A stretch of 61,042 nucleotides of DNA, filler included, from Candidatus Lindowbacteria bacterium RIFCSPLOWO2_12_FULL_62_27 (GCA_001784175.1; 2 parts of 2 records of this genome joined end to end with filler, not necessarily neighbours in it); one strand, 5' to 3'; positions 21,401-40,588 are shown, numbered from the whole stretch's first letter. Numbers and translations: made by a program. The notes: generated from the sequence alone by a model not told the origin.

Positions 21401-21443
21401 GACGATCGCGGATTGGGTGGAAGTCTTGAGGCGGAGAGTGTGA
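15483..21443 (+). CDS. DEAD/DEAH helicase fused to DUF1998, a Vsr/DUF559-like nuclease and an S24 peptidase domain (DrmA+DrmB-like fusion)
   Basis: TGTGSGKS, YPMNALAEDQ, DEAH, TQTLELGVDIG, QRAGRAGR; YDPMPGGSG...C..CDTSCIDC (DUF1998); TTPD..IYLDG...HG...RD; VAAG, GKSMEP, TLKRY. Confidence 0.85.
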   Translation: MALNPLAYTEKVVRSFLRYQLTAYPFADERLNRQMRRLLSLDTVRQTPLLKGPYVSLSRAFRPGAAVEQLVSEGVLHPHMRQIIPFPAVFGHQEQAIRAVCSGKTTLISTGTGSGKSECFLYPIISRCLELRDQNAPSGVSAVIVYPMNALAEDQLGRLRDLLAGTGIPFGMYIGKTPDYESEVRGRRLNAGSSRADYQAALKQSRARGEGAAIHPVEEVCSREKMRAAGGQPRILLTNVKQLELLLTRQSDVELFDRARLDYLVFDEAHTFTGAQGAEAACLIRRLRSFCGRNPEESVAVATSATIVDAGNPDAARDFASRFFGVAREAVETVQEIYADEMWAAHRTVPPAPDHPSERLAEVLAAVDAPDPEPAVRQSWRNLTGTELPAGDWQAVLYQALAGNELVYQVSKLLELPRALGDLLGELEGKIGRVVTEEELIAWLTLGAASRMDNRPLVRPVSHGYLRGVPGAVVTFDENQTDPVLHLSAEDDPGGGVPKLRLRVSTCTTCGQHYFEHALADFDYTGDIPGGGRAAGGAVYWEPLDESRGGIRMLLVDRLISEEDGDGDDHPRLTALYFCRKCGAAHADETEHCLACGKGGRPVALMAVQQRDGHRGQLRTCLSCGAAGRTTAGRFREPARPVRATPVADVHVLAQDMVHHAERKRLLVFADNRQDAAFQAGWMRDHARRFRLRAIMAQAIAGRPMSVGDLAHTLDQILEQDDALSMALLPEVWAVAPKETGGAVHREERKYLLRILILLEITMGARQQVGLEPWGRLSVRYLGLDAGAEFIQTWSKRLGFTPDVLSEGTTALLDVIRRKKNLLDRTGDIFSKIWGDGDRELQNGYMPELSGIPKGLKLTRQGQDDDRWIDQWVSSSGRQTLASEIAKKWGVAPDQIQTFLTGLWDYLTSEPVGLLAPVTLKGQRGNALPRCHGARQIDADKLLLAAHRGVYRCRACRRRTVSRPPLDRCLAWRCDGQLEFVQEDPENYDLQLIDQQYAMLRPREHTAMVPQDEREHIEHIFKGENDVINTLVCTQTLELGVDIGSLDAVLMRNMPPRPANYWQRAGRAGRRHRMAVNLAYCRPVSHDRAYFAEPVKMLGGRIDPPAFNLSNDLMIAKHVHASILTRLHQMSREGFGLSAPDREEILEALKTAFPTRICDYLFDERGDVRPRPRDVTALHTVITKHQQAIEQAVTAAFRQGWPAEDMTAVSQTKLAGHVLNMTAELEAVVQRLHRRLRWAMDQMEKIETLRRRVGVPDEEQQAFYDRCRRLVKKLKGRAPRRRAQSEGVDDILTYGVLAAEGFLPGYGLETGSIVGMAEVPKSIRGARDFDLPRPPTIAVREYVPGNLIYANGQRFVPRRFTREVEEGQDQSIVFEVNPARQAVRQTTTAATGDPSAAVIRSIPISDATLVHVSRISDEEENRFQMAVTLFIRELDQHSGGMAYRWGEKEIQLRKGVRMQMVNVGSASLIRSRNRYGYPVCLGCGQSVSPLSSDAQIDDFRRKHEEWCGMRPESIGFHCEMAVDALTISDCQDWEEAYSVAEAIRFAAVELLDMHIEDLQVTVMGKYDSDRPNAVLYDPMPGGSGLLEQICARFGEIAAVARRLAETCPSVCDTSCIDCFQTYRNAFYHRFLNRHAMSDRFTRWGDSLSDTRPIPQRLPAQEPAGAEQPVNEGERKLRRMLAAANFSEGRWQESVSLPRPLNSTTPDVTFAHPDEEDRKIFIYLDGLSGHLHGNPETRARDIQIRAELRAQGHDVLEITRVDLDDREAMTRHLKRLARLLIGRDAVDRVAGEADQWFAARQDQPATAPVVVPPPPVDLLPFYRVDPQPRDRWTTAVPFIELEVAAGWFSDDQVVDHKLEEAEQWVAPHTDRKIAEGMFVARVKGKSMEPLIPDGSFCLFQTHKGGGRDGRIVFVQHRDIHDAEWGGNYTLKRYAKSIKETFDDETWRHKEIHLAPINPDYETIILRDVRDEHFATIADWVEVLRRRV

Positions 21444-22077: not shown

Positions 22078-22656
22078 TTGTTTCCTGACCCGGCGGAAAA
22101 AAGAGTTCGATTAGATGTCACGATTGAAAGATCCAGCCTCAAACTTCTGAGTGGAGAACCGATTCCGGTTGTCAGGGACGGCACACTTGGCCAATTGACC
22201 ATTCCAGCGTCTGCGATAACAGATGACGCACAACGGCGCCGGTTTACAATGACCCGATATGAGGGAATGCTTGGTCAAGGGACAACAGTGTTGGTCGAAA
22301 TACAAACGAACAAGGGAATTCCGGACCGGCTTGCGGCCGGCGCAATTGTTCGGGATGACGGAGATCGTCGGTTAAGGCCGACAACCCGATATGTGAAAGT
22401 ACGGATAGAAGAACCATTGCGTTTAGAAATCATCGGTGAGAATTTGGGCCGGCTGCTGGACTGCAAGTGCAAGATCGAGAGTTTGAACCAGGAAGCCGAT
22501 AGCGTCAATCATGCCTATACGCTCATCTCGACCGCATTCGAACCAGAACGGAAAAGTCATACCGGCAACGTATTTTCCAAAGTTTTCGTACAGCGGCATG
22601 ACAAGAAGTGGGTGACGTTGGATGCATTGAGGCAAACCATCCTATGTGGGGTTTGA
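22078..22656 (+). CDS. Hypothetical protein
   Basis: 192-aa ORF with ordinary protein composition; no motif recognised. Confidence 0.55.
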   Translation: MFPDPAEKRVRLDVTIERSSLKLLSGEPIPVVRDGTLGQLTIPASAITDDAQRRRFTMTRYEGMLGQGTTVLVEIQTNKGIPDRLAAGAIVRDDGDRRLRPTTRYVKVRIEEPLRLEIIGENLGRLLDCKCKIESLNQEADSVNHAYTLISTAFEPERKSHTGNVFSKVFVQRHDKKWVTLDALRQTILCGV

Positions 22657-22681
22657 TTCACTATAAAAATACATTGGCGAG

Positions 22682-22718
22682 GTTCGCTTTCACCGGCATC
22701 GTTCGTTTACCGAAATAG
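22682..22718 (+). repeat. 37-bp imperfect direct repeat, copy 1 (candidate ECF promoter)
   Basis: GTTCGCTTTCACCGGCATCGTTCGTTTACCGAAATAG; 31/37 identical to 24551-24587; ends 32 nt before the nuclease ATG. Confidence 0.7.
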
Positions 22719-22750
22719 CGGGGCCAATTCGGAGGTGGAGGAAATCCATC

Positions 22751-24541
22751 ATGTTTGACGAGGCACTTTGGGCCGGCGCGCATGCGACGCGGAATTTTGT
22801 CCTGAACGATCCTGTCCTGGACTGGCTAAACCTTTACGGCGAGCAAAAAGGATTTATCAGGGATACCGGGCTGCCGGGGTACGATCCGCGTACGGACATG
22901 TCCGCGTTTCTGTTCAAGAAAGGCATTGAATTCGAACAGGCTGTGATTGGGCACCTTAAAACGCGGGCGGCTGTGGTCACCATTGCGGTTGAGCCGGGGC
23001 AAATACGTGATCCGCAGATGGCCGAACAGACAGTGGATGCCATGGCGCGGGGCGCTCCGATTATCTACAAGGGGGTGCTGCATGACGATCGGCATCAAAC
23101 GTATGGCAGTCCGGACCTGATGGTGAGAAGTAATATTTTACATGAGTTGTTTCCCGCCGCGTTGTCAGCGGGAGACGCCGCCGTTTCCGCGCCGGCGGTG
23201 AAGGGCGGGTCATTTCATTACAGAATTGTCGATATCAAGTTCACGACTCTTGATCTGCTGGTCAGCGGCGAACTCGGCAACTCCGATTCCGGACCCGCTT
23301 ATAAGGCTCAACTGTTCATCTACAATCGCGCCCTGGCGCAGATTCAGGGGTACCTCCCGCCTGTCTCCTATCTCCTGGGCCGGGGCTGGAAGCAGACCAT
23401 CAAGGGTGAGACTCGCAGGGGAGTCAACGCGATGGAACTGCTTGCGCCCGTTTCGCAGACCGGCATGGTCAGCAGGGAAAAAACAATTGCCGCCGTCGTC
23501 GACGCCGCTTGCGATTGGGTCCGGCGGGTCCGATCGGACGGCATGAACTGGACTGTCTGCCCTCATCCGTCCGTGCCGGAACTACGACCCAATATGGGAA
23601 ATAAAGAGGACGCGCCATGGGCTGAGGCGAAGAAGGCTATCGTCGATGAGCTGGATGACCTGACGGTTCTATGGCAGGTGGGAGCGGGAAAACGCGACGC
23701 GGCCTGCCGACAGGGGATTCGTTCCTGGAGAGACAAGAGATGCACAGCCGAGGCCGTCGGCATCACCGGCGCCAAGCAGCAGCCGATCTTGCAGGCCATT
23801 CTCGATATCAACCAGAGAGAGGACGGCCCGACGCTCTCACCCGATCGTGTCACCGCCTGCCGCGAAATATGGGGCCCGGATCCCCCGCTGGAATTTTTCG
23901 TCGATTTCGAAACGGTCACCGACCTGAACGACGATTTCTCCGATTTCCCCCGCCGCGGCGGCCAGCCCATGATTTTCATGATCGGGTGCGGCCATATGGA
24001 AAACGATGCATGGACATTCAAATGTTTTACCGCAACTTCGCTGACGCCGTCGGCCGAAGCCGTCATCATCGACGACTGGATCGACCACATGGGGCAAATC
24101 CGTTTGAAGACCGGCAACGGCATTGAACGACCGGTGGTTTACCATTGGTCTCACGCCGAAACCACAAATCTCTCTACCGCCTATAACGCCTCAGTCCAGC
24201 GCCATCCGGACAAGGCCGGCAAATGGTCCTCCCCACACTGGTTTGATTTTCTCAAAGAGGTCATGAGAGCGGAGCCGGTCGTGGTCCGGGGCGCGCTGGG
24301 GTTCGGCCTGAAAATGATCGCCCGCGCCATGCACCGGCACGGACTGATACAAACCCTCTGGGGGGAAGGCTCCATGGACGGCCTGGGCGCCATGGTCGGC
24401 GCCTGGTGGTGTTGCGAAGAGGCTGCGAAAAATGGGCTCCGGTCATGCGATATCAGCCTGATGAAAGAGATCGAGCATTACAACGAAATCGACTGCAGAG
24501 TCATGATGGAAATCGTCCACCACTTGAGAAAGAATCACTGA
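22751..24541 (+). CDS. TM0106-like RecB-family nuclease with C-terminal RNase H-like domain
   Basis: GSPDL...IVDIKF (PD-(D/E)XK), QLFIY, FFVDFET, FDFL, GFGLK, YNEIDC. Confidence 0.8.
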   Translation: MFDEALWAGAHATRNFVLNDPVLDWLNLYGEQKGFIRDTGLPGYDPRTDMSAFLFKKGIEFEQAVIGHLKTRAAVVTIAVEPGQIRDPQMAEQTVDAMARGAPIIYKGVLHDDRHQTYGSPDLMVRSNILHELFPAALSAGDAAVSAPAVKGGSFHYRIVDIKFTTLDLLVSGELGNSDSGPAYKAQLFIYNRALAQIQGYLPPVSYLLGRGWKQTIKGETRRGVNAMELLAPVSQTGMVSREKTIAAVVDAACDWVRRVRSDGMNWTVCPHPSVPELRPNMGNKEDAPWAEAKKAIVDELDDLTVLWQVGAGKRDAACRQGIRSWRDKRCTAEAVGITGAKQQPILQAILDINQREDGPTLSPDRVTACREIWGPDPPLEFFVDFETVTDLNDDFSDFPRRGGQPMIFMIGCGHMENDAWTFKCFTATSLTPSAEAVIIDDWIDHMGQIRLKTGNGIERPVVYHWSHAETTNLSTAYNASVQRHPDKAGKWSSPHWFDFLKEVMRAEPVVVRGALGFGLKMIARAMHRHGLIQTLWGEGSMDGLGAMVGAWWCCEEAAKNGLRSCDISLMKEIEHYNEIDCRVMMEIVHHLRKNH

Positions 24542-24550
24542 TTCCTTCCT

Positions 24551-24587
24551 GTTCGCTTTCGCGGGCATTTCTCGTTTACTGAAATAG
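24551..24587 (+). repeat. 37-bp imperfect direct repeat, copy 2 (candidate ECF promoter)
   Basis: GTTCGCTTTCGCGGGCATTTCTCGTTTACTGAAATAG; starts about 10 nt after the nuclease stop and ends about 40 nt before the next start. Confidence 0.7.
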
Positions 24588-24627
24588 AAAGACACAAAAG
24601 CAGATCCGAGTCCTCAGGGAGGCGGTC

Positions 24628-24879
24628 GTGATGGGCTGGAGATGGAGCAAGATCAAAAATTTCGGGCCGTTCCGGGTGATATTCAGCCGAGGCGGGGTTG
24701 GAGGCAGTTTCGGGATTCCCGGGTGCCGGGTGGGGGTGTCTGCGTCAGGACGGCGGTATCTATCGCTTGGGATTCCGGGGACCGGATTGTATTGGACGCA
24801 TTATTTTGGGAAAGATCCGGGCGAGACAGGGACGGCGGATTCGCCGACAGATCTGGAGCACCGGGATGGATCCGTTTAA
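24628..24879 (+). CDS. DUF4236 domain protein
   Basis: MGWRWSKIKNFGPFRVIFSRGGVGGSFG...GIPGTGLYW matches the DUF4236 pattern; GGGAGG RBS. Confidence 0.75.
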   Translation: MMGWRWSKIKNFGPFRVIFSRGGVGGSFGIPGCRVGVSASGRRYLSLGIPGTGLYWTHYFGKDPGETGTADSPTDLEHRDGSV

Positions 24880-25141
24880 GCTTGCGTATATTCTGATCGA
24901 GACGTTTCTATTCTGTTTGACTTTCTATTACGCCACGATGATACGCAACCTGTTCCAATCGGCGGCGGTATTTTGCGTTTTCAACGCCGTGACATGGATT
25001 GTCGGATTCGTCATGTTGATTTTGAAAAATCCCGGGACGGTGAATGGAATGATTTTGGCCAAGATGCAGTTATGTCTCATTGCCGCAGCCGGATTTCTAC
25101 TTGGGGCGTATGAGTGCATCAAGCGTGGCAAGGAGTCCTGA
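24866..25141 (+). CDS. Small membrane protein
   Basis: Three hydrophobic segments from MDPFKLAY; overlaps the upstream stop. Confidence 0.55.
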   Translation: MDPFKLAYILIETFLFCLTFYYATMIRNLFQSAAVFCVFNAVTWIVGFVMLILKNPGTVNGMILAKMQLCLIAAAGFLLGAYECIKRGKES

Positions 25142-25142
25142 C

Positions 25143-25547
25143 ATGAGCCGACGGTTGGCCGGGAGGATGAGCATGAAGGGCGACGAGATGAGCGGGGAAG
25201 CGCAGTTCTATACGGTATTCTTCCTCATCGCCGGCGCCATCGCTTTTGTCGGCACGCCTTTTTTGATCGGGAGTGATTACATCGAGAGTGACGAAGCAAA
25301 GGCGATGATTGCGCTCTTTTACACCTTCAGTGTCATCGGCATTGGCGGATGCCTGCTCCTGGGACTTGGGATACACGTTTTGCAGTCAAAACTGCCGATC
25401 TCTTCAGCAATTCTGGCATTTTTGATCAAAGCGGCCGTGGCGGTAGTCGTCGTTGCGATTGCATTGTGCTGGTTTTTTGCGATTATTCCCCTGTTTGCGT
25501 TTGTCGCGGGCGGTATAGCGGGCGTGAAAAAGGCCAATCGCCGGTGA
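25143..25547 (+). CDS. Small membrane protein
   Basis: Three to four hydrophobic segments; start uncertain (25143 or 25188). Confidence 0.55.
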   Translation: MSRRLAGRMSMKGDEMSGEAQFYTVFFLIAGAIAFVGTPFLIGSDYIESDEAKAMIALFYTFSVIGIGGCLLLGLGIHVLQSKLPISSAILAFLIKAAVAVVVVAIALCWFFAIIPLFAFVAGGIAGVKKANRR

Positions 25548-25572
25548 TAAAATCGATTCTGGAGGTGGCGTC

Positions 25573-25698
25573 ATGAAAGGTTACTGCGGCGAATGCAAGA
25601 AAGAGGTGCGGATCCGGTACGAAGAGGATGACGAGGGAAACATCACCTATCACTGCGTCGAATGCAACTGCGAGATCGACCGGCTGACCGGGAGATGA
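25573..25698 (+). CDS. 41-aa zinc-ribbon microprotein (not in ORF track)
   Basis: GGAGGT RBS; MKGYCGECKKEVRIRYEEDDEGNITYHCVECNCEIDRLTGR with two CxxC. Confidence 0.6.
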   Translation: MKGYCGECKKEVRIRYEEDDEGNITYHCVECNCEIDRLTGR

Positions 25699-25764
25699 GA
25701 ACTGTGGTCATGGAATCCATATTGCCTGCACGTCAATCCGTAGGTTATCCTTAGCTCATCGACC

Positions 25765-26301
25765 ATGTTGAAGACCATATCCGAAGAGACCGAAATTCAG
25801 CACTGCCAAAAACGCTTTGTCGAAGCCCTCAAGGGGCAGTCTTCGGATCGCCTGCCGGTCAACGTCGGACATCTCGGCGCCAGTTATGACATGGAGGCAA
25901 CCTACATCGAAAAACAAGCATTATGGTTTGTCTCAAAAAGAATAGAAAACAGCCGATACTGGAACGGATTCGGAATCGGTTATCCGGAACGAAAGACTTC
26001 CTTGTCCATCACATGCGAGATCAATTTCCCGCTGAATGGTATCAACCGCCGGGTTGCGGGTGCGTTCGCAACTGACCAAAAGGGCGAGCGTTATGTGATT
26101 CATCGCGGCAACATTGGCGGCGGACGCAAAGGCATCAGCAAAACCCTGTTCAAAAACTGCTACAAGGGTGAATGGATCGAATTGGACGATGGCGAAATCA
26201 CCTCGTCCGTCGCCCTGATAGGTGCGCTGGGATCGGATGACCTGCCCACGCGTGTCGGACGGTTCGTGCATGAAATCGATGAAATCAAAAAACGGCGATG
26301 A
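25765..26301 (+). CDS. Hypothetical protein
   Basis: 178-aa ORF; no family recognised. Confidence 0.6.
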   Translation: MLKTISEETEIQHCQKRFVEALKGQSSDRLPVNVGHLGASYDMEATYIEKQALWFVSKRIENSRYWNGFGIGYPERKTSLSITCEINFPLNGINRRVAGAFATDQKGERYVIHRGNIGGGRKGISKTLFKNCYKGEWIELDDGEITSSVALIGALGSDDLPTRVGRFVHEIDEIKKRR

Positions 26302-26324
26302 TTTCGTAACGTCTGTTTGACTTT

Positions 26325-29300
26325 TCAGGTTAATCTTAAGAGGAGATCCACAATCGCCGGTTCGCTATTGAATACGTCTCTCGCGCTCACTCGCACAACT
26401 TTGTATCCGGTCGCCTCGATTCGTTTGTCCCGGACGTTGTCGGACCGGATCTGTTCCGGGCTGTTGTGCTGTTTGCCGTCGACTTCGAGGTCGTAACGGG
26501 TTCCGAAGGGGGAGACGACGAGGAAATCGAGTTCGTCGCGGCCTTCTTTGAAGTGATGGTGAAACCAGAGTCCGGCCTTGCGAAGAAGCTCTGCCATGCG
26601 GGATTCGGAGGTTTCGCGGATGTCTGCCTCTGAGTGTCCGGCAACGTGGCCGGAAGACACGTAATCTGCGAATTCACCGATATACCCGCCCGCGTTTTTG
26701 CAGGCTTCCAGATTGCCGATGACATGAAGGGCGGCGCGGGCGCGGGTGACGGCGACATTGAGGAGCTGATCGGTTTTGGCGACCCAGCCGGCGGTCTTTT
26801 CACGGATGCCGTCGGAAATGACGGGGGAAAAAATCATGAGGTCGCACTCATCGCCCTGAAACTGGTGCGCGGTGCCGACAGTCAGCCGGCCTTTCACCTC
26901 TTCCCACCACGGTTGTTTTTGAACGGCTTCGCCCAGCTTTTCCATCTGGGCGCGAAACGGAGTGACGATGCCGAATGTCAGATCGCGGTTGGCCAAGAGT
27001 CCGGCTCCGTGCCAGAGATTCAAAAGATGGATTGCCGCCTCGATCTCGTCTTTGTTCCATGCGCCGCGTGATGTTTCCGGCACACGGCCTTTCACGTCGT
27101 GCCAGAACACACCCAGTTTCTGACCATCCACCTTTTTTTCCAGAGCAGAGACAGCGGTTCGGAGAACAAGCCGGCCCTGATAGAAGACCCGGTTGGAGAA
27201 TTCGATGACGTCGGGATGAGAGCGGTAGTGTTCCGCGAGAAAAATCGGGGGATTGTCGCGCCCAACCACCGCGGCCGCAGCGACATCATACAGAGAACAG
27301 CGGACAAACGACCAGTCCGTCAGAAGATCTTCCGCGCCCTGTTGGTGCGCCAGGTACTCTTCCCGCTGATAGCGGATCGCGCTGATATGGCGAAGCTGGT
27401 TGGGATCGCCGATGATGAGCGCGCGTTTGGCGCGAAAGAGAAGCGGGATTGCGGACGGAATATCGCACTGGCTGGCCTCGTCAATGATGACCAGATCAAA
27501 CAGGGCAGGCTCAAGCGGCATGGACCTCCGAACCGATAGATTCGTGACAATCCAGACGGGCAGAAACGGGCCGAGAGATTTGATCGTTCTGCTGAAGTCC
27601 TCCATCAGCCGCCTCGCCTGCGGGCTGTTGCCGCTTCTCGGCCGGCTGGATAGATCGAAAAACCGGCGGGCGCACTGATGGGCGACATCCCATTTGGCCC
27701 GGATCCTGCCGGTCCACTCCATCCTCAGAAAATCCCGGGACCGCGTTGATTTTTCGTGCTTCAGTTTTTGCCATTTCTGGAGAAGGCTATTCGCGGTGGG
27801 CAAAGATCCAAGTTTTTTCAGCATTAGCCGATATGTGTTCCGGGCGTTCACCCAGGATGCGTAATCGCTGAGTTTCTGAAACGCATCCGCCAGCGTGGAA
27901 AATGTCACGTCCGCTCGAACGTCGCGTAGAATCGCATCCTGAACCGCGGCGGGTAACGGGCGCGCGCATTCAGTCAGACGTTCTGTCAGCTCTCGAAGGA
28001 GGCGTTTTCTTGCGAATAGCCGCCGAATCCACAGGATAAATCCCATCAGGCCGCGGCCGGCCAGAGCGCGGGATTCGGTGACACCACGGCGTAAAGGTTC
28101 TTCCGGAATAGCCGGAAGATTTGAAAGGTCGGTCGAATCAGTCCATTCAGGAGGAACCGTTTCGGCGGCTTTGGACATTTTTTCCACGGCCGCTTGAACC
28201 TGCTCACGCATCTCACCCAACTGTTTCATTTCCTGTCGCACGGTCTGCAGTTTCTCGTCAATGCCCTTGAGTACGGCCGTGGCGTCCAGGTCGGACGTGA
28301 CATTCGGACGAGTGCCGATACTGGACAGCCGCCGGAGCATGTCTGCGGAAGTTTCCTCCATTTTGGCTTTGCTTCCCAACCGCAGTGTCCAGTCATCCTC
28401 TTCGAGGATCGCGTTCAGGCGCTCGTGGACCACGTCGACGGCCTTGTTGTTCTTGCTCGCAAACAGAACCGCTTTGCCCGCGGCGGCACAGCTCGCGAGA
28501 AGATTCACAACGACCTGGGACTTGCCGGTGCCCGGCGGGCCGGTGACGACAGTGATCGGTTTCGTGAGACCCGCCAAGGCCGCCAGTTCCTGTTGGTCAT
28601 TCAGGGGCAGAACTTCCAGAACGGGGACGGACGACTCCGTCATGGGGGGCGCCGCATGTGATTGACCCGGGGCCAGAATCGGCGCAAGCGCGGTGCCCAT
28701 CACATTCTTGAGGAGGTCATCCCGGCCGAGGAGTTCATCCATTTCTTTTTTGAGATTGTACGTGAACAAGTTTCGCTCACTGCGGAACAGGATCGGCTTG
28801 TTGACCCATCGCGATTCCACCGCGCCTCCATCGGGCAGAGGCTCCAGACGGTCATGCCGGAATGGCTGAGGGTCGACCCGCAAATGATCGAGCGCCGCGC
28901 GAAGCCGCGCCTCGAACGATCCGAAGAGGCCTTCGAGTTCGGAGAGAATAGCCGGCAGTTGTTCCGACAGATGACCGTGGGATAGAAGGACATGATGGTT
29001 GACCATCACAGCGTTGGGATCCACCGGCCGCATCGTGCAGGCGCCGCCGGAACCGACCACAAGTTCCACTTCAAGCATGAACAGCGGCGTCACAAAATCC
29101 CGGGCATCGAGGAAAATGGGATAGCCGTAGAAAAATCTCTCGGCAGGTCCCGCGCGCGCGGCCCCGCGCGTGACAAATGAGAGTTCGCCGGTGTCCACCT
29201 GAAATCGGACTTCGGGCGAGCCCGGATGCAACAAGGGTTCGGACCTTTTCCATGGAGAGATGAACGACTGGCCGTACTGCGCCCGCTCGAGCTTGAGGGC

Positions 29301-30506
29301 ATGCTTGTCCTCCTCTTCGATACAGGACTGATAAAATCGGAGCAGTCGTGCGAAGTCGGACTCGCCGCAGTCACGCCGGCCTGTCGGCTCTGCTGATTCA
29401 ACCCTTTGACGGGGGCGCCCGCCTGCTCCTGAATCAGCGACCCGTTCCAAGTCGGATTTCAACTCTTTCATGTTGCGGTATCGATCGGCCGGGTTTTTCT
29501 TGAGACAGGATTGAACGAGTTCCGCCAGCGGTGGCGGGACGTCCGGGCTGAAAGAGCGCAGATCCGGCGCCGGGGTTTCGAGAATGGAGTGGTACAGCCT
29601 GTCCAACGTTTCCTCTTCAAAAGGAACTCTCAATGCGAGGAGTTCATAGAGGACGACTCCAAGGGCGTAAACATCCGTCTGCTCGCCTATTTCTTTTTTG
29701 CGAATCATCTCAGGGCTGATGTAATACGGCGTACCAAGGACTTCGCTTGTCCGGGTGCGGACGGAACTTTCCGCCAGTTTGCTGATTCCGAAGTCCATGA
29801 GTTTGATCATGCCGTGCGTATCGTAGAGGATGTTTTGAGGCTTAACGTCACGGTGAATGACCCGCGCGCGGTGGGCGGCATCGAGGCCATCGCAGGCCTG
29901 TCGGGCGATATTGACGACGGCGTTGATGTAGTCGGCGTCCAGGATGGTGCGGACGCGGTTTTTAGGCGGCAAGTCGGCCATTCGGCCTGTCGCGACGTCG
30001 AATACATCGGAAGCGCGGGAAAATCTATTCTCCTTGATGTGTCGGACAACCTTGTCCAGCGTCAGGCCTTCGAGATATTGCATGACGTAGTAATAGAATT
30101 CGTCGGTTTCACCGTGAGAGTAGATGACCACGATGTTCGGATGTGTGAATTTGGCGAGTATCTTACTTTCTTGCTGAAATCGTTTGAGTACTTGCTCGTT
30201 GTCCATCTTCGGAATCACTTTGACCGCGACCTGCCGGTCAAGGGACGTGTCGTGGGCCAGATAGACTTTCCCCATGCCATGCCCCAGAAGACGGGTGATG
30301 TTCAGGTTCGGTATTTTTATGGAATCGGAGTCACCTGCTTTCCCGCCTCGCGCTTTTCGGAACATGTCTTCAACTTTTTGGTATTTCTTCACTTTCTCGA
30401 GGAAATGCGGATCCCCGTCATAGGGGGACTTTGAGAGGTCCGGCTCGCGCCCTTCCTGTATTTCGTCCAGGTATTTCAGGAAAAGATCTCCGGTATCAGC
30501 CTTCAT
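26325..30506 (-). CDS. Ser/Thr protein kinase fused to Upf1-like SF1 helicase (AAA_11/AAA_12 type) and Vsr/DUF559-like nuclease
   Basis: VAVK, HRDVKPQN, DFG, GTPYYISPE, DVYALG; GPPGTGKS, DEASQ, GDPNQL, HYRS, HQFQGDE, NVAVTRA; ELDFLV..LEVDGKQH...RD. Confidence 0.88.
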   Translation of the reverse strand: MKADTGDLFLKYLDEIQEGREPDLSKSPYDGDPHFLEKVKKYQKVEDMFRKARGGKAGDSDSIKIPNLNITRLLGHGMGKVYLAHDTSLDRQVAVKVIPKMDNEQVLKRFQQESKILAKFTHPNIVVIYSHGETDEFYYYVMQYLEGLTLDKVVRHIKENRFSRASDVFDVATGRMADLPPKNRVRTILDADYINAVVNIARQACDGLDAAHRARVIHRDVKPQNILYDTHGMIKLMDFGISKLAESSVRTRTSEVLGTPYYISPEMIRKKEIGEQTDVYALGVVLYELLALRVPFEEETLDRLYHSILETPAPDLRSFSPDVPPPLAELVQSCLKKNPADRYRNMKELKSDLERVADSGAGGRPRQRVESAEPTGRRDCGESDFARLLRFYQSCIEEEDKHALKLERAQYGQSFISPWKRSEPLLHPGSPEVRFQVDTGELSFVTRGAARAGPAERFFYGYPIFLDARDFVTPLFMLEVELVVGSGGACTMRPVDPNAVMVNHHVLLSHGHLSEQLPAILSELEGLFGSFEARLRAALDHLRVDPQPFRHDRLEPLPDGGAVESRWVNKPILFRSERNLFTYNLKKEMDELLGRDDLLKNVMGTALAPILAPGQSHAAPPMTESSVPVLEVLPLNDQQELAALAGLTKPITVVTGPPGTGKSQVVVNLLASCAAAGKAVLFASKNNKAVDVVHERLNAILEEDDWTLRLGSKAKMEETSADMLRRLSSIGTRPNVTSDLDATAVLKGIDEKLQTVRQEMKQLGEMREQVQAAVEKMSKAAETVPPEWTDSTDLSNLPAIPEEPLRRGVTESRALAGRGLMGFILWIRRLFARKRLLRELTERLTECARPLPAAVQDAILRDVRADVTFSTLADAFQKLSDYASWVNARNTYRLMLKKLGSLPTANSLLQKWQKLKHEKSTRSRDFLRMEWTGRIRAKWDVAHQCARRFFDLSSRPRSGNSPQARRLMEDFSRTIKSLGPFLPVWIVTNLSVRRSMPLEPALFDLVIIDEASQCDIPSAIPLLFRAKRALIIGDPNQLRHISAIRYQREEYLAHQQGAEDLLTDWSFVRCSLYDVAAAAVVGRDNPPIFLAEHYRSHPDVIEFSNRVFYQGRLVLRTAVSALEKKVDGQKLGVFWHDVKGRVPETSRGAWNKDEIEAAIHLLNLWHGAGLLANRDLTFGIVTPFRAQMEKLGEAVQKQPWWEEVKGRLTVGTAHQFQGDECDLMIFSPVISDGIREKTAGWVAKTDQLLNVAVTRARAALHVIGNLEACKNAGGYIGEFADYVSSGHVAGHSEADIRETSESRMAELLRKAGLWFHHHFKEGRDELDFLVVSPFGTRYDLEVDGKQHNSPEQIRSDNVRDKRIEATGYKVVRVSARDVFNSEPAIVDLLLRLT

Positions 30507-31116
30507 CCGGCACCAGCTTGGTCAGTTTTTCCATGATCCGATTGTGCCGCATCCGCATGCCGTCTTCCGTCTTGCCCCGTTTATGTGCCATCTCATTGAA
30601 GGAAAATCCGTAGATGTCACGCTCAATCACGATTTCGCGTTCCTCTTCGGTTAATTGGTCCAGAATAGATTCCAACAAAATCTGGTCGTCCCACTTCTTG
30701 TCCGGAGACGTCCGTTTCCCCTGATCCGCAGCTACGGCCAACCCGCCGCCGGTTGTATCCATGCGTATTTGCCGGCTGATCCGGCGCCGGTCAGCGTTGT
30801 GGTACTTGATTTGGTCGGCAATCTGGGTTTTGACGATGCTGTACAGCCAGGCAATGAATTCTCCTTCGCTTGGAAAGACTTTGGGCCGGCCATCGTTCTG
30901 TGCATTCTGTACCGACTTGAGAGCCTTCTCCATGGAATCCTGGACGATATCCATGGATTCCATTTTGCTCCGAAGTTTCTGACCCATGCGAATCCTGGCC
31001 AGGCGATGGATTTTCTCCTGATACTTCTCGAGAAGCGCGTGGATGGCGCCGATGTCACCGGCGCTCGCAGCGTGCAACAGGCGAAGTGTTTCGGAAAAGA
31101 GGCTTTTGGTGACCAT
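30496..31116 (-). CDS. ECF-type RNA polymerase sigma factor
   Basis: Region 2 (LLEKYQEKIHRLA..MDIVQD..FIAWLYSI) and region 4 (LTEEEREIVIERDIYGFSFNEMAHKRG); overlaps the kinase start. Confidence 0.85.
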   Translation of the reverse strand: MVTKSLFSETLRLLHAASAGDIGAIHALLEKYQEKIHRLARIRMGQKLRSKMESMDIVQDSMEKALKSVQNAQNDGRPKVFPSEGEFIAWLYSIVKTQIADQIKYHNADRRRISRQIRMDTTGGGLAVAADQGKRTSPDKKWDDQILLESILDQLTEEEREIVIERDIYGFSFNEMAHKRGKTEDGMRMRHNRIMEKLTKLVPDEG

Positions 31117-31151
31117 CGGATTGTCACGTTATCATGGGCTGGCCGGGGTCT

Positions 31152-31904
31152 CTACCGGGATTTACTGATCTCGACCGGCACGATCAGGACGGTCATATTG
31201 TCGGACGAACCCTTGCTATTAGCCTGCTCGATGATCCGCTGTGCGGCCTTGTTTGGATCATCGCAAGATCGAAGCAAATGGTCCATTTCCGGAATATCCA
31301 CCGCGTCGCAGACTCCGTCAGTGGTCAGGATCACATAACGGTCATGCGGTGACAGAATGTAACTTCCGATGTCCGGCATTGCATGCAGACCGACTTCACG
31401 CATCGTCCGATCGCCAAAAGCCCGAGTCGGCATGAGTCCCATCCCTTTGTGGAGATAATATGGATCCTGCACAGAAGCGCCGGCGCTTGTGACACGGGCC
31501 CTTTCGGTTGGATGGTCAATCCGATGGGACGGTGTCAGGCGGTACGTCGATTCTGAACCAGCGAGAAACACCGCGCAATCTCCGGCGTTGGCGTAAACCA
31601 TCGTCTTGCAGTTAATGAATGCGGTGGCCGCGGTTGATCCACAATCGTATTCCCACGTTTCTCGTTCGGCGGCGCGGTAGGCCATTTTCATGGCAGTTTC
31701 GTAATCGCCGGTCTGATCCAGCGCGTAGAAGAATTCAGTCGAAACTGTGTGGACAAGGACGTCCGCGACGTCCGATCCCCCATGACCATCATAAACTCCG
31801 AGAAAAATGCCCACCCCCTTCTTTTCCCGAACGCTGAACCTGTCTTCCATTGTTTTCCGGTTTCCGAGATGTTGACGAACCTGAACCCGGCTGTGCTGTT
31901 GCAT
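31152..31904 (-). CDS. PP2C/PPM-family protein phosphatase
   Basis: RKTMEDR, YDGHGG, GSTA, ANAGD, TRAFGD, TTDGV, DNMTV; GAGGAGG RBS right at the contig edge. Confidence 0.9.
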   Translation of the reverse strand: MQQHSRVQVRQHLGNRKTMEDRFSVREKKGVGIFLGVYDGHGGSDVADVLVHTVSTEFFYALDQTGDYETAMKMAYRAAERETWEYDCGSTAATAFINCKTMVYANAGDCAVFLAGSESTYRLTPSHRIDHPTERARVTSAGASVQDPYYLHKGMGLMPTRAFGDRTMREVGLHAMPDIGSYILSPHDRYVILTTDGVCDAVDIPEMDHLLRSCDDPNKAAQRIIEQANSKGSSDNMTVLIVPVEISKSR

Positions 31905-31919
31905 CCCGATTTCCTCCTC

Positions 31920-32019
31920 NNNNNNNNNNNNNNNNNNNNNNNNNNNNNNNNNNNNNNNNNNNNTTAATTAATTAANNNNNNNNNNNNNNNNNNNNNNNNN
32001 NNNNNNNNNNNNNNNNNNN
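31920..32019. other. Assembly gap / artificial contig linker
   Basis: 100-nt N run with TTAATTAATTAA (stops in all six frames) at 31964-31975. Confidence 0.95.
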
Positions 32020-32033
32020 CAAAAGTCAAACGG

Positions 32034-32615
32034 ATGTTCGGGACGCTCGACATTGAGACGCGCCGCTATTCAGTTCTTCGCGCCAAAGGGGGACTTCGCA
32101 AGGCCAACGGCAAAACAGTTGACCTCGGCTCCCGCATGGTCCTGATTGACGCGATGGGGATTGACCGCACGCTTCACGATATCCTGCTCGACATTCGGCA
32201 GACGAGCCGAAAAAACACAGACCCCAAACACGAGACGCCCGAGGACAGAGCACGCGCCGCCCGGATGCAATGGCACTACGACCCGATGACGCATTACGTC
32301 CCGCCTGAGTGTCGCGCCACGGCGTCGATGTTTCGCGATCCGGCGGACATGCCCGACCACTCGCTGAAAAAATTCGCCGACGGCACGGTCAGGGCTTTGA
32401 CGGCGGACGAAATCTGCGAGCCATACCCGGACCTGATGCCCGGCGCTGGCGAGCCTTCGCCGTTCCCGGCAGTTGCCCGAGGGGAGAGCATCGACCCCCA
32501 CGAGTTCCAGGTCGACACGGATCCAGCCCGTGAATTGAAATATGGCCACTTCGACCTGACTCCGGTTGTGCGCTTCCTGCACCGCCGTCGCTATCTGGAG
32601 TGGCTCGCCGCGTAG
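32034..32615 (+). CDS. Hypothetical protein, possibly 5'-truncated by the gap
   Basis: Frame is open back to the gap; no motif recognised. Confidence 0.5.
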   Translation: MFGTLDIETRRYSVLRAKGGLRKANGKTVDLGSRMVLIDAMGIDRTLHDILLDIRQTSRKNTDPKHETPEDRARAARMQWHYDPMTHYVPPECRATASMFRDPADMPDHSLKKFADGTVRALTADEICEPYPDLMPGAGEPSPFPAVARGESIDPHEFQVDTDPARELKYGHFDLTPVVRFLHRRRYLEWLAA

Positions 32616-33492
32616 CCCGATCCTGAGCGGTCCCACCCCGCTCCGAAATGCTGGGATAAAAAATCGGGCCCCGAACCCCTCTCCCCTGCCCTCTCCCCAA
32701 GGGAGAGGGTGCGTTGGCGGCGCGGCCGCGCCGCCTTCGCCCCGCCGGTATGCTGAGGCGGGGCGTTGCTGGACGAGAACCCCGAAGCTCAAGCGCCGCA
32801 TGGCTGAATGGGCGCGTGCGGACGCACGCGCTAAAGCATTCTGGCGCGCCGGCCAGTGGAGGTATCTGTGCGCGCCCAACAGCCAGATGGCCCTCCATGG
32901 CAGTCGGTCGGCGGTCATCCTGACCGCCGATCCTCCCCGCAGACCACACCCGACCACCGGCGATGTCAAAACATCGCCGCGAAAGCGGCTGTCACGTTGT
33001 GATCAGCCGCTTTTCATTCGCGGCAAACATTCAGTTCAAAAACAAGCAGGTCAAAAACGTCCTACCAGGGACGGCGACCCGGAAGATCACGGCAACAAGG
33101 CGTGACTCGTCGGCGTTGATTACCGCGCTTCATCCCCACATGGGTCGTGCAAATAACACAGTCCGACGGACAGGACTTGTAAAAACACTGCCAAGACGGT
33201 CGGGGTCACAGAGGCCTGACCCAGCGGTGAGCGCGGTCGGAAGTCCGCGTCGTTACAGAGCGCGTAACCTCTGAACACATATCTATCCCGAGCGAGCCCT
33301 CGCTCAAAATCGCCTCGAAGATCCCCAACCCCGGAGGGTGGGCACCCCGCACATCTCCCACCCGTGCGGCCCTCCGGAACATATACGACCCCGCGTTTGC
33401 ATCTCTCCAGATCGGCGCGCCTCACAAGCGCGGGGTCACTGCCTTATATCCATCATTCCGGTGGCGTCTCCTCCACGCCACCGGCTTTTTTT
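32616..33492 (+). ncRNA. Candidate large structured non-coding RNA (or structured ssDNA element)
   Basis: At least 13 stem-loops or helices in about 880 nt, no credible ORF, ending in an intrinsic terminator. Confidence 0.5.
33458..33492 (+). terminator. Rho-independent terminator
   Basis: CCGGTGGCGT-CTCCTCC-ACGCCACCGG followed by CTTTTTTT. Confidence 0.8.
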
Positions 33493-33524
33493 CAAACAGG
33501 GGGGCGTGCGGCAAGTCCCAACTA

Positions 33525-34627
33525 TTGACACCTGCATAATAATGTCCTAATTTCTGGGTGGGAGGTGGGAACCCATGAGATCTAAAGGAACCCCCGGGGA
33601 ATTGGAACAAAGAAGGATCAAAGCCATCCAGTTGTTGGAGGAAGGACGAAGACCCGTCGAAGTGGCCAGGGTGATCGGAGTAGATCGCCGGAGTGTGAGG
33701 CGTTGGAAATCGGCCTATCGAAAAAAGGGCATGGATGCCGTCCGATATCCAGCCAAATGGGGAAGGCCGGTGAAAATTTCGAGCAAACAGAGTCGGCAAC
33801 TGGAGCGGGATCTTCTGCGAGGAGCGAAATCCTGCGGGTTTTCGACAGATTTGTGGAGCTGCCCTCGGGTTGCCAAGCAGATTCAACGTCGATATGGAAT
33901 CAGTTATCACGTCGATCATATCGGCCGTTTGTTGCGGCGGATGGGATGGAGTCCACAACGGCCAGCCCGACGAGCCATCGAGCGAAATGAAGTGGCCATC
34001 CGGAGATGGGTAAAAGAAAAGTGGCCCCGGTGTAAAAAAAAGCCCACGACCTGAACGCTTTTCTTGTTTTCATAGACGAAAGTGGCGTGTTGATGGCGCC
34101 CTTGGTCCGCCGGACGTGGGCCCCCATCGGTCAAACGCCCATTCTTCAACAGAGAACGCGATCCCATCAAAAAGTTTCGATGATCGCCGCGCTCTGTGTT
34201 CCTCCCAAACGTGATCGAGTTCGGTTGTACTTCCGATTGCATCCGAATGCCAATCTCAATGCCATTACGATTCGCGCCTTCCTGCGTCTTTTGATGCGCC
34301 ATATCCCCGGCAACATCGTCCTGATCTGGGACAACCTTGGGGCGCATCATGGCAAGGTCATGCAAAGCCTTTTGCAAAAGACGCCTCGGCTCCATGTCTT
34401 CCGGTTTCCGCCGTATGCTCCGGAACTCGATCCGGTAGAATATTTCTGGAGTTATTTGAAAACGAAGCCGCTTGCCAACGATGCGCCGGAGGATATTGCC
34501 ACATTGGCCACGAAGGCGCGTTCTCACAGTCGTTCGATACAGAGAACGGACAGACTCCTTCGCTCGTTCGTTCAACACAGTCCTCTCTCTTTGCGCCTCA
34601 GATAGGACATTATTATACAGGTATCAA
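33525..34627 (+). mobile_element. IS630-family insertion sequence
   Basis: 25-bp terminal inverted repeats (TTGACACCTGCATAATAATGTCCTA / TAGGACATTATTATACAGGTATCAA, 2 mismatches) flanked by duplicated TA (33523-24, 34628-29). Confidence 0.93.
33575..34605 (+). CDS. IS630 transposase (HTH ORF plus DDE ORF joined by -1 frameshift)
   Basis: ORF1 33575-34054 is HTH/winged helix; A8G at 34034-34042; -1 frame reads FIDESG...IWDNLGAH...PPYAPELDPVE. Confidence 0.88.
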
Positions 34628-36793: not shown

Positions 36794-37660
36794 ATGAACA
36801 AGGTCTATCAAATCATTACCGAGCGCATCATCGACAGAATGAAACAGGGGATCATCCCGTGGCAGCGGCCGTGGCACGCGCGCCAACAGACCCCAAAAAA
36901 TCTTGTCACGAAACTGCCCTACCACGGGACAAACTTCTTTCTCCTGTGGTCGCTGGGGTATGAAAGCCCGTACTTCCTCACGATGCGGCAAGCCAACGAA
37001 CTCGGCGGCTCTATTCGGGCGGGAGAAAAGGCTTTGCCGGTCGTGTTCTGGAAGATCCTCAAATTCGACGAGGAAATTTCTTCGGATGGACAACCCAAGA
37101 AAGTACCCATGCTTCGTTACTACCATGTGTTCAATTCGTCCCAATGCGAAAATCTCGCCGGTAAAATTCCCAGCTACACGGACGTGGACAATCCATTCTC
37201 GCCAATCGAAGCCGCGGAACTCGCCGTCGATAACATGTCTGCGCGCCCGTGCATCGAACATGGCCATACGCGCGCGTACTACAGCCCCGTGAACGACTTG
37301 ATCTGTCTGCCTTCGCCCGAAAGATTCGACCGGCCGGAGGACTACTACGCAACGCTCTTCCACGAGCTCGTTCACAGCACCGGCCATGCCACAAGACTGT
37401 CCCGCCGGGATTGGCTGTCGGGCGACGACAAACACGACGCCTATTCAAAGGAAGAACTGGTCGCCGAAATGGGCGCAACGTTTCTCTGCGCCGAAACCGG
37501 CATCTTGGCCTCACAGGTTGATCGTTCGGCGGCGTATATTCAAAGCTGGATCGAAACATTCGAAAACAACCACCGCCTGATTTTCACGGCCGCAACCCAC
37601 GCCCAGAAGGCGGTTGACTTCATTTTGAACCGCATGGCGGTTCACGTAGCTTCGAATTGA
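36794..37660 (+). CDS. ardC: ArdC-family antirestriction / ssDNA-binding protein with zincin-like domain
   Basis: VYQIITERII..PWQRPW, YHGTN, LTMRQANELGG, VFNSSQ, FHELVHSTGH..RL.R, YSKEELVAE. Confidence 0.88.
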   Translation: MNKVYQIITERIIDRMKQGIIPWQRPWHARQQTPKNLVTKLPYHGTNFFLLWSLGYESPYFLTMRQANELGGSIRAGEKALPVVFWKILKFDEEISSDGQPKKVPMLRYYHVFNSSQCENLAGKIPSYTDVDNPFSPIEAAELAVDNMSARPCIEHGHTRAYYSPVNDLICLPSPERFDRPEDYYATLFHELVHSTGHATRLSRRDWLSGDDKHDAYSKEELVAEMGATFLCAETGILASQVDRSAAYIQSWIETFENNHRLIFTAATHAQKAVDFILNRMAVHVASN

Positions 37661-39255: not shown

Positions 39256-39525
39256 TTATTCGATCAACTTCCAGACCCCAACCGCCGACCCAATCGCGCC
39301 AACAAATCCCAGCCACACCCGCCAGTTCCAATCGAGTTGTTTGGCATGACTCGCCACCTTCTCCGTCAACACCGCGATTTTGCCGGTGAGCTTTGACTCG
39401 ATCGTATCCATCCGTCCGTCGAGTTTCGCGTTCTGGATCCGGATCTCCGTCAGAAGTTCCATCTGTTCATCCTGTTTGCCATTCAGATTATTCAGCGCCG
39501 CCAGGATTTCCTCGTTCTCGCTCAT
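39256..39525 (-). CDS. Phage lysis-cassette protein (coiled coil plus C-terminal TM)
   Basis: MSENEEILAAL... coiled coil, then VWLGFVGAIGSAVGVW; downstream of the holin. Confidence 0.6.
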   Translation of the reverse strand: MSENEEILAALNNLNGKQDEQMELLTEIRIQNAKLDGRMDTIESKLTGKIAVLTEKVASHAKQLDWNWRVWLGFVGAIGSAVGVWKLIE

Positions 39526-39989
39526 GGCCTCGTCCCCTCCGATTTGCCGAATAGCTGTGCTTTCTCCCACGTCCGCGCGCCCACATACCCCAGCATGACC
39601 GACCCGAACAGCCAGAACATCGGCTCCGGAAATTCGATGGGCGTCCGGCCAAGCAGTGGCACCACCACGTAGTTCCAAAGCAAAATAAAATTGCAGATGT
39701 AGAGAAACAACGGCCGCGCGCGGCTGGTGAATTTGTCCCCGCTCATCGTCTCGGCCCGGATGTTTTCGCCGGCCACCTTCGTGACCTCGATGTCGTGCCC
39801 CCGGACCGCCAGCTCAAATTCGTGCTGGAGGGTCATCTCCTGCATCCGAAGTTTGGCTTTGACCAAATCCGCCGCCCGCTTCTCGTCCGCCGTCTCGACA
39901 AATTTATCGATCACGTCCCCGATGGTCTTGACGACACCACCGGCGTTGCCGCCCTGAAAAAGGCCGCCGAACAATCCAAGTAAGTTCAT
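39522..39989 (-). CDS. 3TM-type holin (DUF3154 / GTA-release holin family-like)
   Basis: IGDVIDKFVETADEK..., E..SGDKFTSRARP, LGYVGARTWEK. Confidence 0.75.
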   Translation of the reverse strand: MNLLGLFGGLFQGGNAGGVVKTIGDVIDKFVETADEKRAADLVKAKLRMQEMTLQHEFELAVRGHDIEVTKVAGENIRAETMSGDKFTSRARPLFLYICNFILLWNYVVVPLLGRTPIEFPEPMFWLFGSVMLGYVGARTWEKAQLFGKSEGTRP

Positions 39990-40588
39990 GCGATCTTCAC
40001 CCCCGCCCGAATTCGAAGCTCCGTTGCCACGGTCTTCACAAATTCCTCGAACGGGAATTTCTTTCCCGGGCAATCCTTCTCCTGAAACCGGCTGTGCGGA
40101 TAAATCACATTGGCGTTCTCGTGGATTCCCTCGCGGAGCAACGCCACGCACAACCGTACCCCGCTCTCAAACGTCAGCCGTGACAATTCCTCCTCGTTGA
40201 AATTCCCCGCAAAACAAATCCCGATGCAGGATGAATTGACCCCTGCCGGCATCACGATCTTGCCGTCCAGCGATTTCGTTGCCTTGGTGTGGCTCCCCGG
40301 TCTCTGCCAGACCCATCGGGCCTTTTCCCCGGCATCCGAAATCCAAATCCCGCCATCCTCCTCGATCCCGAAGTGGTATCCCATGTCCGAGTAGCCTCTC
40401 CCGCCGTCCGCTGCCGGCTTCACATGAAAATTCGCATACGCCTGAATATCGTGCCGCTCCGTTTTCGCGTTCGCCGCGCCGTGATGAAGGACGATCCCTA
40501 CCCATTCTCGTAAATTGCCGCGGACCACTTTCCACACATCCGCAACCTCGATCTTCCGGATCGGCCAGTTACCGGATGGGGATTCCAC
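39986..40588 (-). CDS. N-acetylmuramoyl-L-alanine amidase (endolysin)
   Basis: IVLHH, GYSDMGYHF, SHTK, NSSCIGICFAGNF, HS...KDCPG; start uncertain and shorter than the track ORF. Confidence 0.85.
   Translation of the reverse strand: MESPSGNWPIRKIEVADVWKVVRGNLREWVGIVLHHGAANAKTERHDIQAYANFHVKPAADGGRGYSDMGYHFGIEEDGGIWISDAGEKARWVWQRPGSHTKATKSLDGKIVMPAGVNSSCIGICFAGNFNEEELSRLTFESGVRLCVALLREGIHENANVIYPHSRFQEKDCPGKKFPFEEFVKTVATELRIRAGVKIA

Follow-up and report, generated by a model that had tools for sequence, protein, structure and literature searches.

Kinases, helicases, nucleases and sigma factors meet in several described bacterial systems. In Mokosh type I, the protein MkoA joins a Ser/Thr kinase to an Upf1-like helicase and defends E. 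coli (bioRxiv 10.1101/2022.05.11.491447). MkoA comes with the PLD nuclease MkoB, and in Mokosh type II a single protein, MkoC, combines the helicase with PLD. CoCoNuT type III-B systems contain a CnuH that is fused to a Vsr-like effector (PMC10542128). On the side of transcription control, the extracytoplasmic function (ECF) sigma factors of the ECF43 pairs EcfP-PknT and EcfK-PknS are phosphorylated by a cognate Hanks kinase, with a Ser/Thr phosphatase proposed to reset the switch (PMC13147305). Finally, DdvS-DdvA of Myxococcus xanthus is a case in which an ECF sigma factor inside a defence island controls this island (PMC11506125). Each pairwise combination, that is kinase with helicase, helicase with nuclease, sigma factor with kinase and sigma factor with defence island, is already known. 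Here we describe a locus that holds all of these elements: three genes for a PP2C-type Ser/Thr phosphatase, an ECF sigma factor and a fused kinase-helicase-nuclease protein (KHN), found in a 61,042-nt stretch of DNA (the window) from Candidatus Lindowbacteria bacterium RIFCSPLOWO2_12_FULL_62_27 (GCA_001784175.1).

The initial annotation of this stretch had described three co-oriented, tightly spaced open reading frames (ORFs), and all were found as claimed. The genes for PP2C, sigma factor and KHN lie on the minus strand, with 35 nt between the PP2C stop and the sigma start and an overlap of 11 nt between the sigma and KHN genes. To our knowledge, all inputs of known ECF-sigma/Hanks-kinase pathways are envelope sensors. 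What takes the place of such a sensor here? We read the trio, tentatively and with not quite an even chance of being right, as a cytoplasmic ECF-sigma/Hanks-kinase/PP2C signalling operon in which the sensor of the kinase has been replaced by an intact helicase-nuclease of the defence-island kind, which would be wired to the sigma factor. The logic of this reading is borrowed from the ECF/Hanks-kinase pairs, where the kinase receives its input through the C-terminal domain and the sigma factor delivers the output.

Part of the evidence for this reading comes from a comparison with related gene groups. On a metagenome contig (L101) we find a PP2C (64% identity), an ECF sigma factor (57%) and a kinase (51% over residues 1-354), which has the same leader and insert as KHN and continues with a transmembrane (TM) helix and DUF4384. 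Another contig of the window's own genome (C43) encodes an FHA protein, an ECF sigma factor (47%) and a kinase that is 45% identical across residues 1-354, again with the same leader and insert. In this kinase a TM helix and TPR repeats come next, and a PP2C is located 4 kb from the cassette. The insert is a stretch of about 40 residues (KENRF...) within the kinase domain. The initial annotation had likened the KHN leader to those of ECF-paired kinases, and this likeness extends to three further sigma-adjacent kinases, namely those of C43, L101 and L015, the last being a genome of a second genus that has the complete trio. The leader also aligns loosely with four more distant kinases. In all four cassettes, whatever the sensor, the sigma and kinase genes overlap by 11 nt in the form G-ATG-N7-TGA, which ties the kinase to the sigma factor and not to the helicase. 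A metagenome scan with PP2C gave L101, two distant PP2Cs and the contig of the window itself; the exact PP2C and sigma proteins also lie on a contig of 48,317 bp.

The helicase-nuclease of KHN thus sits in the sensor position of the sister cassettes, and the TM helix is gone. As had been pointed out initially, no TM helix follows the kinase domain of KHN, unlike in two paralogous kinases that have one there, and KHN is predicted to be a cytoplasmic protein. Judged from these arrangements, PP2C-ECF-kinase is a reusable cassette with a variable sensor position.

KHN itself had been described as a chain of 1393 residues with a Hanks kinase, an Upf1-like helicase and a Vsr/DUF559-like nuclease, a description on which Pfam domains and invariant catalytic residues agree (Table 1). 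In the kinase, K96, E113, D220 (HRD), N225 and D238 (DFG) are invariant across 10 aligned kinases, and the closest PDB entries by sequence belong to Ser/Thr kinases of bacteria, among them PknB, PknA and StkP. Among seven aligned helicase sequences the motifs GPPGTGKS (656-663), DEASQ (1009-1013) and VGTAH.FQG.E.D (1210-1222) are invariant, as is LNVA.TRAR (1249-1257) save for a Val/Ile position at 1253; GDPNQL (1033-1038) is conserved, and only Asn1036 varies. A long insert in the helicase core separates Walker A from Walker B. The solved helicases closest in sequence are Sen1, Upf1, IGHMBP2 and DNA2 (PDB), so the label Upf1-like is correct. The nuclease is recognized by DUF559 (1336-1390, 5.6e-05), above the Pfam cut-off, and by MTES_1575 (1301-1386, 1.6e-07), below it, and D1327, E1341, D1343, H1347, D1356, R1359 and D1360 are invariant in seven sequences. 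By these alignments the catalytic residues of kinase, helicase and nuclease are all intact.

Between kinase and helicase lies a domain that is harder to place. An AlphaFold2 model of residues 376-640 folds confidently (pLDDT 88.4, pTM 0.80), and Foldseek found no fold match for it in the PDB (best E 8.8e-3, TM-score 0.12). A wide VIA-align search gave a best Z of 5.6 from helical pairs only, and no fold was assigned. The feature score in the ESM Atlas between this N-domain and DUF4011 (0.90, 140 shared features) is a lead only: Pfam gives no DUF4011 match in the N-domain at E<=0.01, and hhalign of the N-domain profile against the N-termini of DUF4011 proteins is not significant (E 0.08 with one protein, 0.04 with five). 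Possibly, the N-domain serves in substrate recognition.

Table 1. Features of the three-gene locus, in positions of the window
Feature	Position	Strand	Details
PP2C-type Ser/Thr phosphatase (P0003)	31152-31904	-	250 aa; Pfam PP2C 2.9e-32 over residues 13-237
ECF sigma factor (P0002)	30496-31116	-	206 aa; Pfam Sigma70_r2, Sigma70_r4_2, Sigma70_ECF
KHN (kinase-helicase-nuclease, P0001)	26325-30506	-	1393 aa
5' leader of operon with GGAGG ribosome-binding site	31905-31919	-	last 15 nt of contig
KHN N-terminal leader, residues 1-65 (LFLKYLDEIQEGREPD...)	30312-30506	-	alignment with leaders of sigma-adjacent kinases
Hanks-type Ser/Thr kinase domain, residues 69-352	29451-30302	-	Pfam Pkinase 71-347, 2.4e-51
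N-terminal domain of helicase-nuclease family, residues ~385-630	28617-29354	-	conserved throughout the kinase-less relatives
Upf1-like SF1 helicase core, residues 635-1266	26709-28604	-	AAA_11 635-775 (1.1e-25), AAA_12 1084-1266 (2.3e-29)
Vsr/DUF559-like PD-(D/E)xK nuclease, residues 1301-1390	26337-26606	-	DUF559, MTES_1575

Where did the helicase-nuclease half come from? Residues 375-1393 of KHN align end to end with more than 100 kinase-less clusters of about 1015 residues at 34-51% identity, and this family is found across many bacterial and archaeal lineages. By this alignment, the C-terminal part of KHN is a whole member of a widespread kinase-less helicase-nuclease family. Fusions with the kinase are rare. 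Among the 120 best full-length matches only P0004 (99%) and P0005 (66%, the L015 protein) carry it, and the same two are the only ones with the helicase among the top 120 matches of the kinase domain, whose C-terminal parts are TPR, WD40, FGE-sulfatase and similar. A HMMER search with residues 1-1200 against 1.84 billion representatives, in which the fused cluster is not listed as a row of its own, returned no other protein with both kinase and helicase among the best 150. Ten long multi-stretch matches were considered as further fusions and rejected, nine of them being multi-kinase proteins and one (P0164) a kinase-less helicase-DUF559 protein. A quick maximum-likelihood tree with 42 rows, rooted at the midpoint only, places the three fused forms in one clade (SH-aLRT 100) that is nested inside a clade of kinase-less proteins (SH-aLRT 97), which points to a single fusion event.

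A fusion of this kind could also be an artefact of assembly, a possibility that the initial annotation had raised itself. Full-length copies of KHN (1373-1393 residues, at least 90% identity) are present on four contigs of near-identical strains (31,919, 39,222, 25,191 and 12,509 bp). In addition, seven DNA runs from four studies of groundwater and soil metagenomes contain at least 68% of the sampled words. In the four of these runs whose Logan contigs were examined for bridging, the boundary between kinase and helicase (~29381) is bridged in three, and the sigma/KHN and PP2C/sigma junctions are bridged in all four; none of the bridging contigs shows indels or joints. Given the full-length strain copies, the copy in another genus and the bridging contigs, the fusion is not a mis-assembly.

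The initial annotation had further made its idea depend on the conservation of the trio in other genomes. An alignment-based scan of 185,579 species genomes yielded 80 loci of helicase-nuclease relatives; the same scan with a single protein as query gave no match. One of these loci belongs to L015, a Candidatus Lindowbacteria metagenome-assembled genome (MAG) of a second genus, where the match covers KHN residues 1-1393. Its trio has the same order PP2C-ECF-KHN, at 75%, 72% and 66% identity, and flanks that differ from those in the window. Orthologues of these L015 flanks are found on other contigs of the window's genome (a histidine kinase at 58%, a response regulator at 74% and a TPR protein at 61%). 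The trio is present in two of the four genomes of the phylum (one family), and these two belong to different genera. This query found nothing in the other two genomes of the phylum, whose completeness is 91% and 81%. Three of the 79 other helicase-nuclease loci have an unlinked kinase within 8 kb.

The partners of KHN were characterized in the same way. The PP2C protein carries the motifs MEDRF, DGHGG, GDCA, TDG..D and DNMTV, which we take to be metal binding. The sigma factor scores above the NCBIfam cut-off for TIGR02937 (63.4 bits, cut-off 42.9) and below that for TIGR02984 (89.6 bits, cut-off 183.75), and it matches Pfam PF07638. Its family is very small, with six clusters in a word-indexed search, and there is no anti-sigma-like ORF between the sigma and kinase genes. 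Region 2.2 reads ESMDIVQD. The initial annotation had placed ESMD at the DAED-equivalent motif that is phosphorylated in pairs such as EcfP/PknT and had drawn attention to the serine. The residues are indeed there, at positions 53-56, and the argument from the serine fails: the canonical acidic motif [DE]-S-M-D-I-V-Q-[DE] is present in eight of eight sigma relatives. An acidic DxxDxxQE is typical of kinase-independent sigma factors, and those of ECF43 carry an uncharged QTTA instead, with the phospho-Thr at its third position (PMC13147305). This third position is Met in the sigma factor discussed here, and on sequence grounds an EcfP-type switch is not indicated for it. EcfK has a second, functionally required phosphosite in the linker between sigma2 and sigma4 (PMC13147305). 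At the position of linker Thr122, all eight relatives have Ser or Thr, making it a candidate phosphosite, not evidence for one.

How does the trio compare to the systems introduced above? The initial annotation did not recognize it as a named system. No PADLOC or NCBIfam model names the trio, and the models name neither KHN nor the kinase-less family; what had been overlooked is MkoA with its Ser/Thr kinase and Upf1-like helicase. The best PADLOC scores of KHN (MkoA 1.1e-88, MkoC 7.7e-55, PDC-S37 1.6e-42) arise from generic kinase or helicase-nuclease cores, and all of its best PADLOC and NCBIfam scores stay below or far below the family cut-offs. Like MkoA, KHN unites a Hanks kinase and an Upf1-like (COG1112) SF1 helicase in one polypeptide, and like MkoC it has a nuclease fused in cis. 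Unlike in Mokosh, this nuclease is DUF559/Vsr-like and Pfam detects no PLD domain, and MkoB matches none of the 10 ORFs in the neighbourhood of KHN on the contig. The kinase, unlike that of MkoA, comes from the ECF-paired sensor-kinase family, and Mokosh has neither a sigma factor nor a PP2C. The likeness to Mokosh is a generic one: kinase-less relatives reach 144-162 bits to MkoA by their helicase alone.

Along the same lines, the C-terminal module of SF1 helicase and DUF559 matches the Hhe, ProA and PDC-S37 profiles at their ends, and the end of the PADLOC Hhe profile also aligns in kinase-less relatives. Membership in the Hhe type, to which the initial annotation had pointed, is not supported, as KHN reaches 85.6 bits against a cut-off of 2000 for Hhe, and 145.5 against 1500 for ProA (NCBIfam), and is a member of neither. 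KHN is about half as long as the Hhe, ProA, PDC-S37 and CnuH-type fusions, which carry no kinase, sigma factor or PP2C, and unlike in Hhe its N-domain is not recognizably DUF4011. McrB/McrC (CnuB/CnuC), a feature of CoCoNuT type III-B, has no Pfam match on 21 of the window's ORFs. As in the ECF43 pairs, the sigma gene adjoins the kinase gene and an anti-sigma factor is missing. Unlike in these pairs, region 2.2 is acidic ([DE]SMD, not QTTA), and the kinase has a helicase-nuclease instead of a TM helix and extracytoplasmic sensor. DdvS-DdvA, in the part of the article cited, uses no kinase, and its sensor is not a nucleic-acid enzyme. Lacking PLD, a sufficient Hhe score and DUF4011, QTTA and McrBC, the trio falls outside the named families, and by these comparisons it is a member of none of Mokosh, Hhe, CoCoNuT and ECF43. 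A literature search, with subscription journals outside its reach, found no published title or abstract describing a kinase-helicase-nuclease together with a sigma factor and PP2C, and the main text of PMC9519451 does not mention Hhe, Vsr or PD-T4-6.

The setting of the trio leads to defence. To the left of KHN the contig encodes RmuC, a full-length DrmD (2.9e-193), a type IIG restriction-modification/DrmMI protein (1452 bits) and, at 15483-21443 on the plus strand, a DEAD/Helicase_C/MZB (DUF1998) helicase of 1986 residues with a DruE match of 2.4e-98. Judged by these matches, the 32-kb contig is a defence island. For the kinase-less relatives, 21 of the 80 loci were chosen for their long flanks, and the 94 ORFs located up to 2.6 kb from the helicase gene were examined there. 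A PADLOC match at E<=1e-15 is found in 13 of the 21, a count made without a background control and over relatives that are mostly 28-35% identical to the query. Six loci have near-full-length neighbours (E<=1e-80), which are PDC-S39, DpdF, PDC-S06, IetA, ZorD and Drt1a, and eight of the 21 have no PADLOC neighbour. A defence role of KHN is plausible, and it rests on this genomic context.

Some neighbours on the contig deserve a mention of their own. The DruE-like helicase bears a C-terminal S24 (LexA-like) peptidase domain, an unusual fusion. In the gap between the methylase and this helicase (11159-15466, plus strand) lies a gene for a 1435-residue protein with weak NACHT, UvrD_C and TPR matches and no PADLOC match, which may be an unnamed STAND-type defence component. 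Five ORFs at 22078-26301 on the plus strand (147-596 residues) have no match in Pfam (E<=0.001) or PADLOC (E<=1e-15) and are absent from L015.

How could such a system work? In the preferred reading, the helicase-nuclease would engage foreign or aberrant nucleic acid, which it could also cut. This engagement would switch on the attached kinase, for instance through clustering and trans-autophosphorylation, and the kinase would act on the sigma factor that is made along with it through translational coupling. Phosphorylation would probably fall on Ser or Thr beyond region 2.2, with the conserved linker Thr122 as one example; alternatively, the sigma factor might be released from the kinase leader. 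It would then drive transcription of the operon and perhaps of other genes, and PP2C would set the threshold and reset the switch. The phospho-switch defence idea of the initial annotation stays plausible. A more far-reaching version is innate-immunity-like signalling, in which a cytoplasmic helicase-nuclease would be sensor and effector, the fused kinase would phosphorylate a dedicated ECF sigma factor and transcription would thereby be reset once an invader is detected, PP2C would be the off-switch, and the cassette would be a plug-in module for TPR, DUF4384 and helicase-nuclease parts; this we consider doubtful.

Several observations weigh against such a wiring. With the acidic residues kept in eight of eight relatives, a phospho-switch of the ECF43 type is not needed here, and the sigma factor might bind core RNA polymerase constitutively. 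A sigma factor or PP2C of this kind stands beside none of the 79 other helicase-nuclease loci (queried with single sequences), and the helicase-nuclease therefore works without both elsewhere. The trio is seen in one candidate phylum only and may have come to both genera from a common ancestor, in which case they represent one evolutionary event. A target promoter is not definable from the 15 nt on the window contig and the sole other upstream region, that of L015, and no RNA runs are among the matches listed for the operon. The missing background control and the low identity of most relatives in the neighbour count belong here as well.

A different view takes the trio as an effector resembling Mokosh type I. 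The kinase would regulate the helicase-nuclease or phosphorylate host or phage proteins and thereby abort infection, the sigma factor would only drive the operon without being a substrate, and PP2C would be an antidote against autoimmunity. We regard this as unlikely, although it draws on real similarities. MkoA has the same pairing of Ser/Thr kinase and Upf1-like helicase, and both P0001 (1.1e-88) and P0005 (3.1e-89) match its PADLOC profile in both halves, covering positions 18-280 (kinase) and 572-1081 (helicase) of 1112. The kinase part further has matches of about 1e-70 to PD-T4-6 and mad6, two defence kinases that stand alone, and the canonical acidic residues of sigma region 2.2 fit a sigma factor that is no substrate. 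However, scores of this size to PD-T4-6 and MkoA are typical of any Hanks kinase: an unrelated neighbouring kinase in locus L049 reaches 4.5e-87. Nor is the kinase derived from MkoA, its closest relatives being the sigma-adjacent sensor kinases of L101 (51%) and C43 (45%) with their shared leader and insert, and the 11-nt overlap that is kept whatever the sensor is at odds with a kinase that belongs to the helicase.

The output might also have nothing to do with immunity. The ECF-kinase pathway would then report the cell's own DNA damage, replication or RNA trouble: its helicase-nuclease would sense nucleic acids of the host, and the sigma factor would activate a regulon for stress or repair. 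RNA surveillance and DNA repair also employ Upf1-like helicases and Vsr/DUF559 nucleases, which agrees with the closest PDB relatives of KHN, and the sister cassettes (TM helix with TPR, TM helix with DUF4384) resemble ordinary envelope signalling. The eight of 21 relatives' loci without a PADLOC neighbour point in the same direction. Against this, the gene is located on a 32-kb contig otherwise full of defence genes, the trio is patchy (two of four genomes) and in differing contexts, unlike a core repair function, and members of the helicase-nuclease superfamily have a scattered distribution in bacteria and archaea and often stand beside defence systems. Taken together, this makes a role outside immunity rather improbable. 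An inert fusion, in which a truncated sensor-kinase gene received a helicase-nuclease gene behind it and the two frames became one by accident or in decay, would account for its occurrence in one lineage only and for the absence of the TM helix and sensor that the ancestral kinase had, but it is barely credible for a frame of 1393-1395 residues that stays open with the catalytic motifs of all three enzymes kept at 66% between genera, with sigma factor and PP2C kept alongside at 72-75% and with several strain variants carrying the full-length gene.

The extent of the operon has to be read with the structure of the window in mind. The window is made up of two assembly contigs, C16 (1-31919) and C17 (from 32020), which are connected by a spacer at 31920-32019 that consists of Ns with a ttaattaattaa linker. 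C16 ends 15 nt upstream of the PP2C start, and because the contig ends there, the genes to the right of PP2C (ArdC, holin, terminase) are not real neighbours. The 15 nt before the PP2C ATG are the same in the window and in L015 (15 of 15). In L015, a hairpin resembling an intrinsic terminator, with a T run, follows the preceding, unrelated TPR gene and precedes PP2C, so the operon probably starts at PP2C; most likely it is an operon of three genes. Scans of 25500-31919 for sigma-70 promoters and terminators remained at or below shuffle expectation, and a comparison by eye found no shared ECF-type motif upstream in L015 and C43. At position 31919, contigs in three of four public runs end 6 nt past the end of the MAG contig, and in the fourth run one contig goes on for 336 nt; the sequence immediately before the operon may contain a repeat or a junction that varies between strains.

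Further observations concern the rest of the genome. The start of C17 (window 32020-33920) is repeated twice on contig C30 at 85-92% identity. Also on C17, ArdC (36794-37660), a holin (39522-40151) and a terminase (40569-42272) look like a prophage or an element resembling a gene transfer agent. Contig C33 of the same genome encodes at least 12 Hanks kinases within 21 kb (~63989-84758).

What would the trio mean for these families? If the preferred reading is true, it would be the first ECF-sigma/Hanks-kinase pathway with a cytoplasmic nucleic-acid enzyme as its input, and the first case of a transcriptional output built into a defence-type helicase-nuclease. It offers a compact three-gene system for two questions: how kinases control ECF sigma factors with an acidic region 2.2, and whether bacterial defence effectors can signal to gene expression. 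Whatever its role in defence, one cassette with three sensors is useful for the classification of ECF sigma factors. The arrangement of its genes and domains suggests that the trio may wire the sensing of foreign nucleic acid to gene expression.

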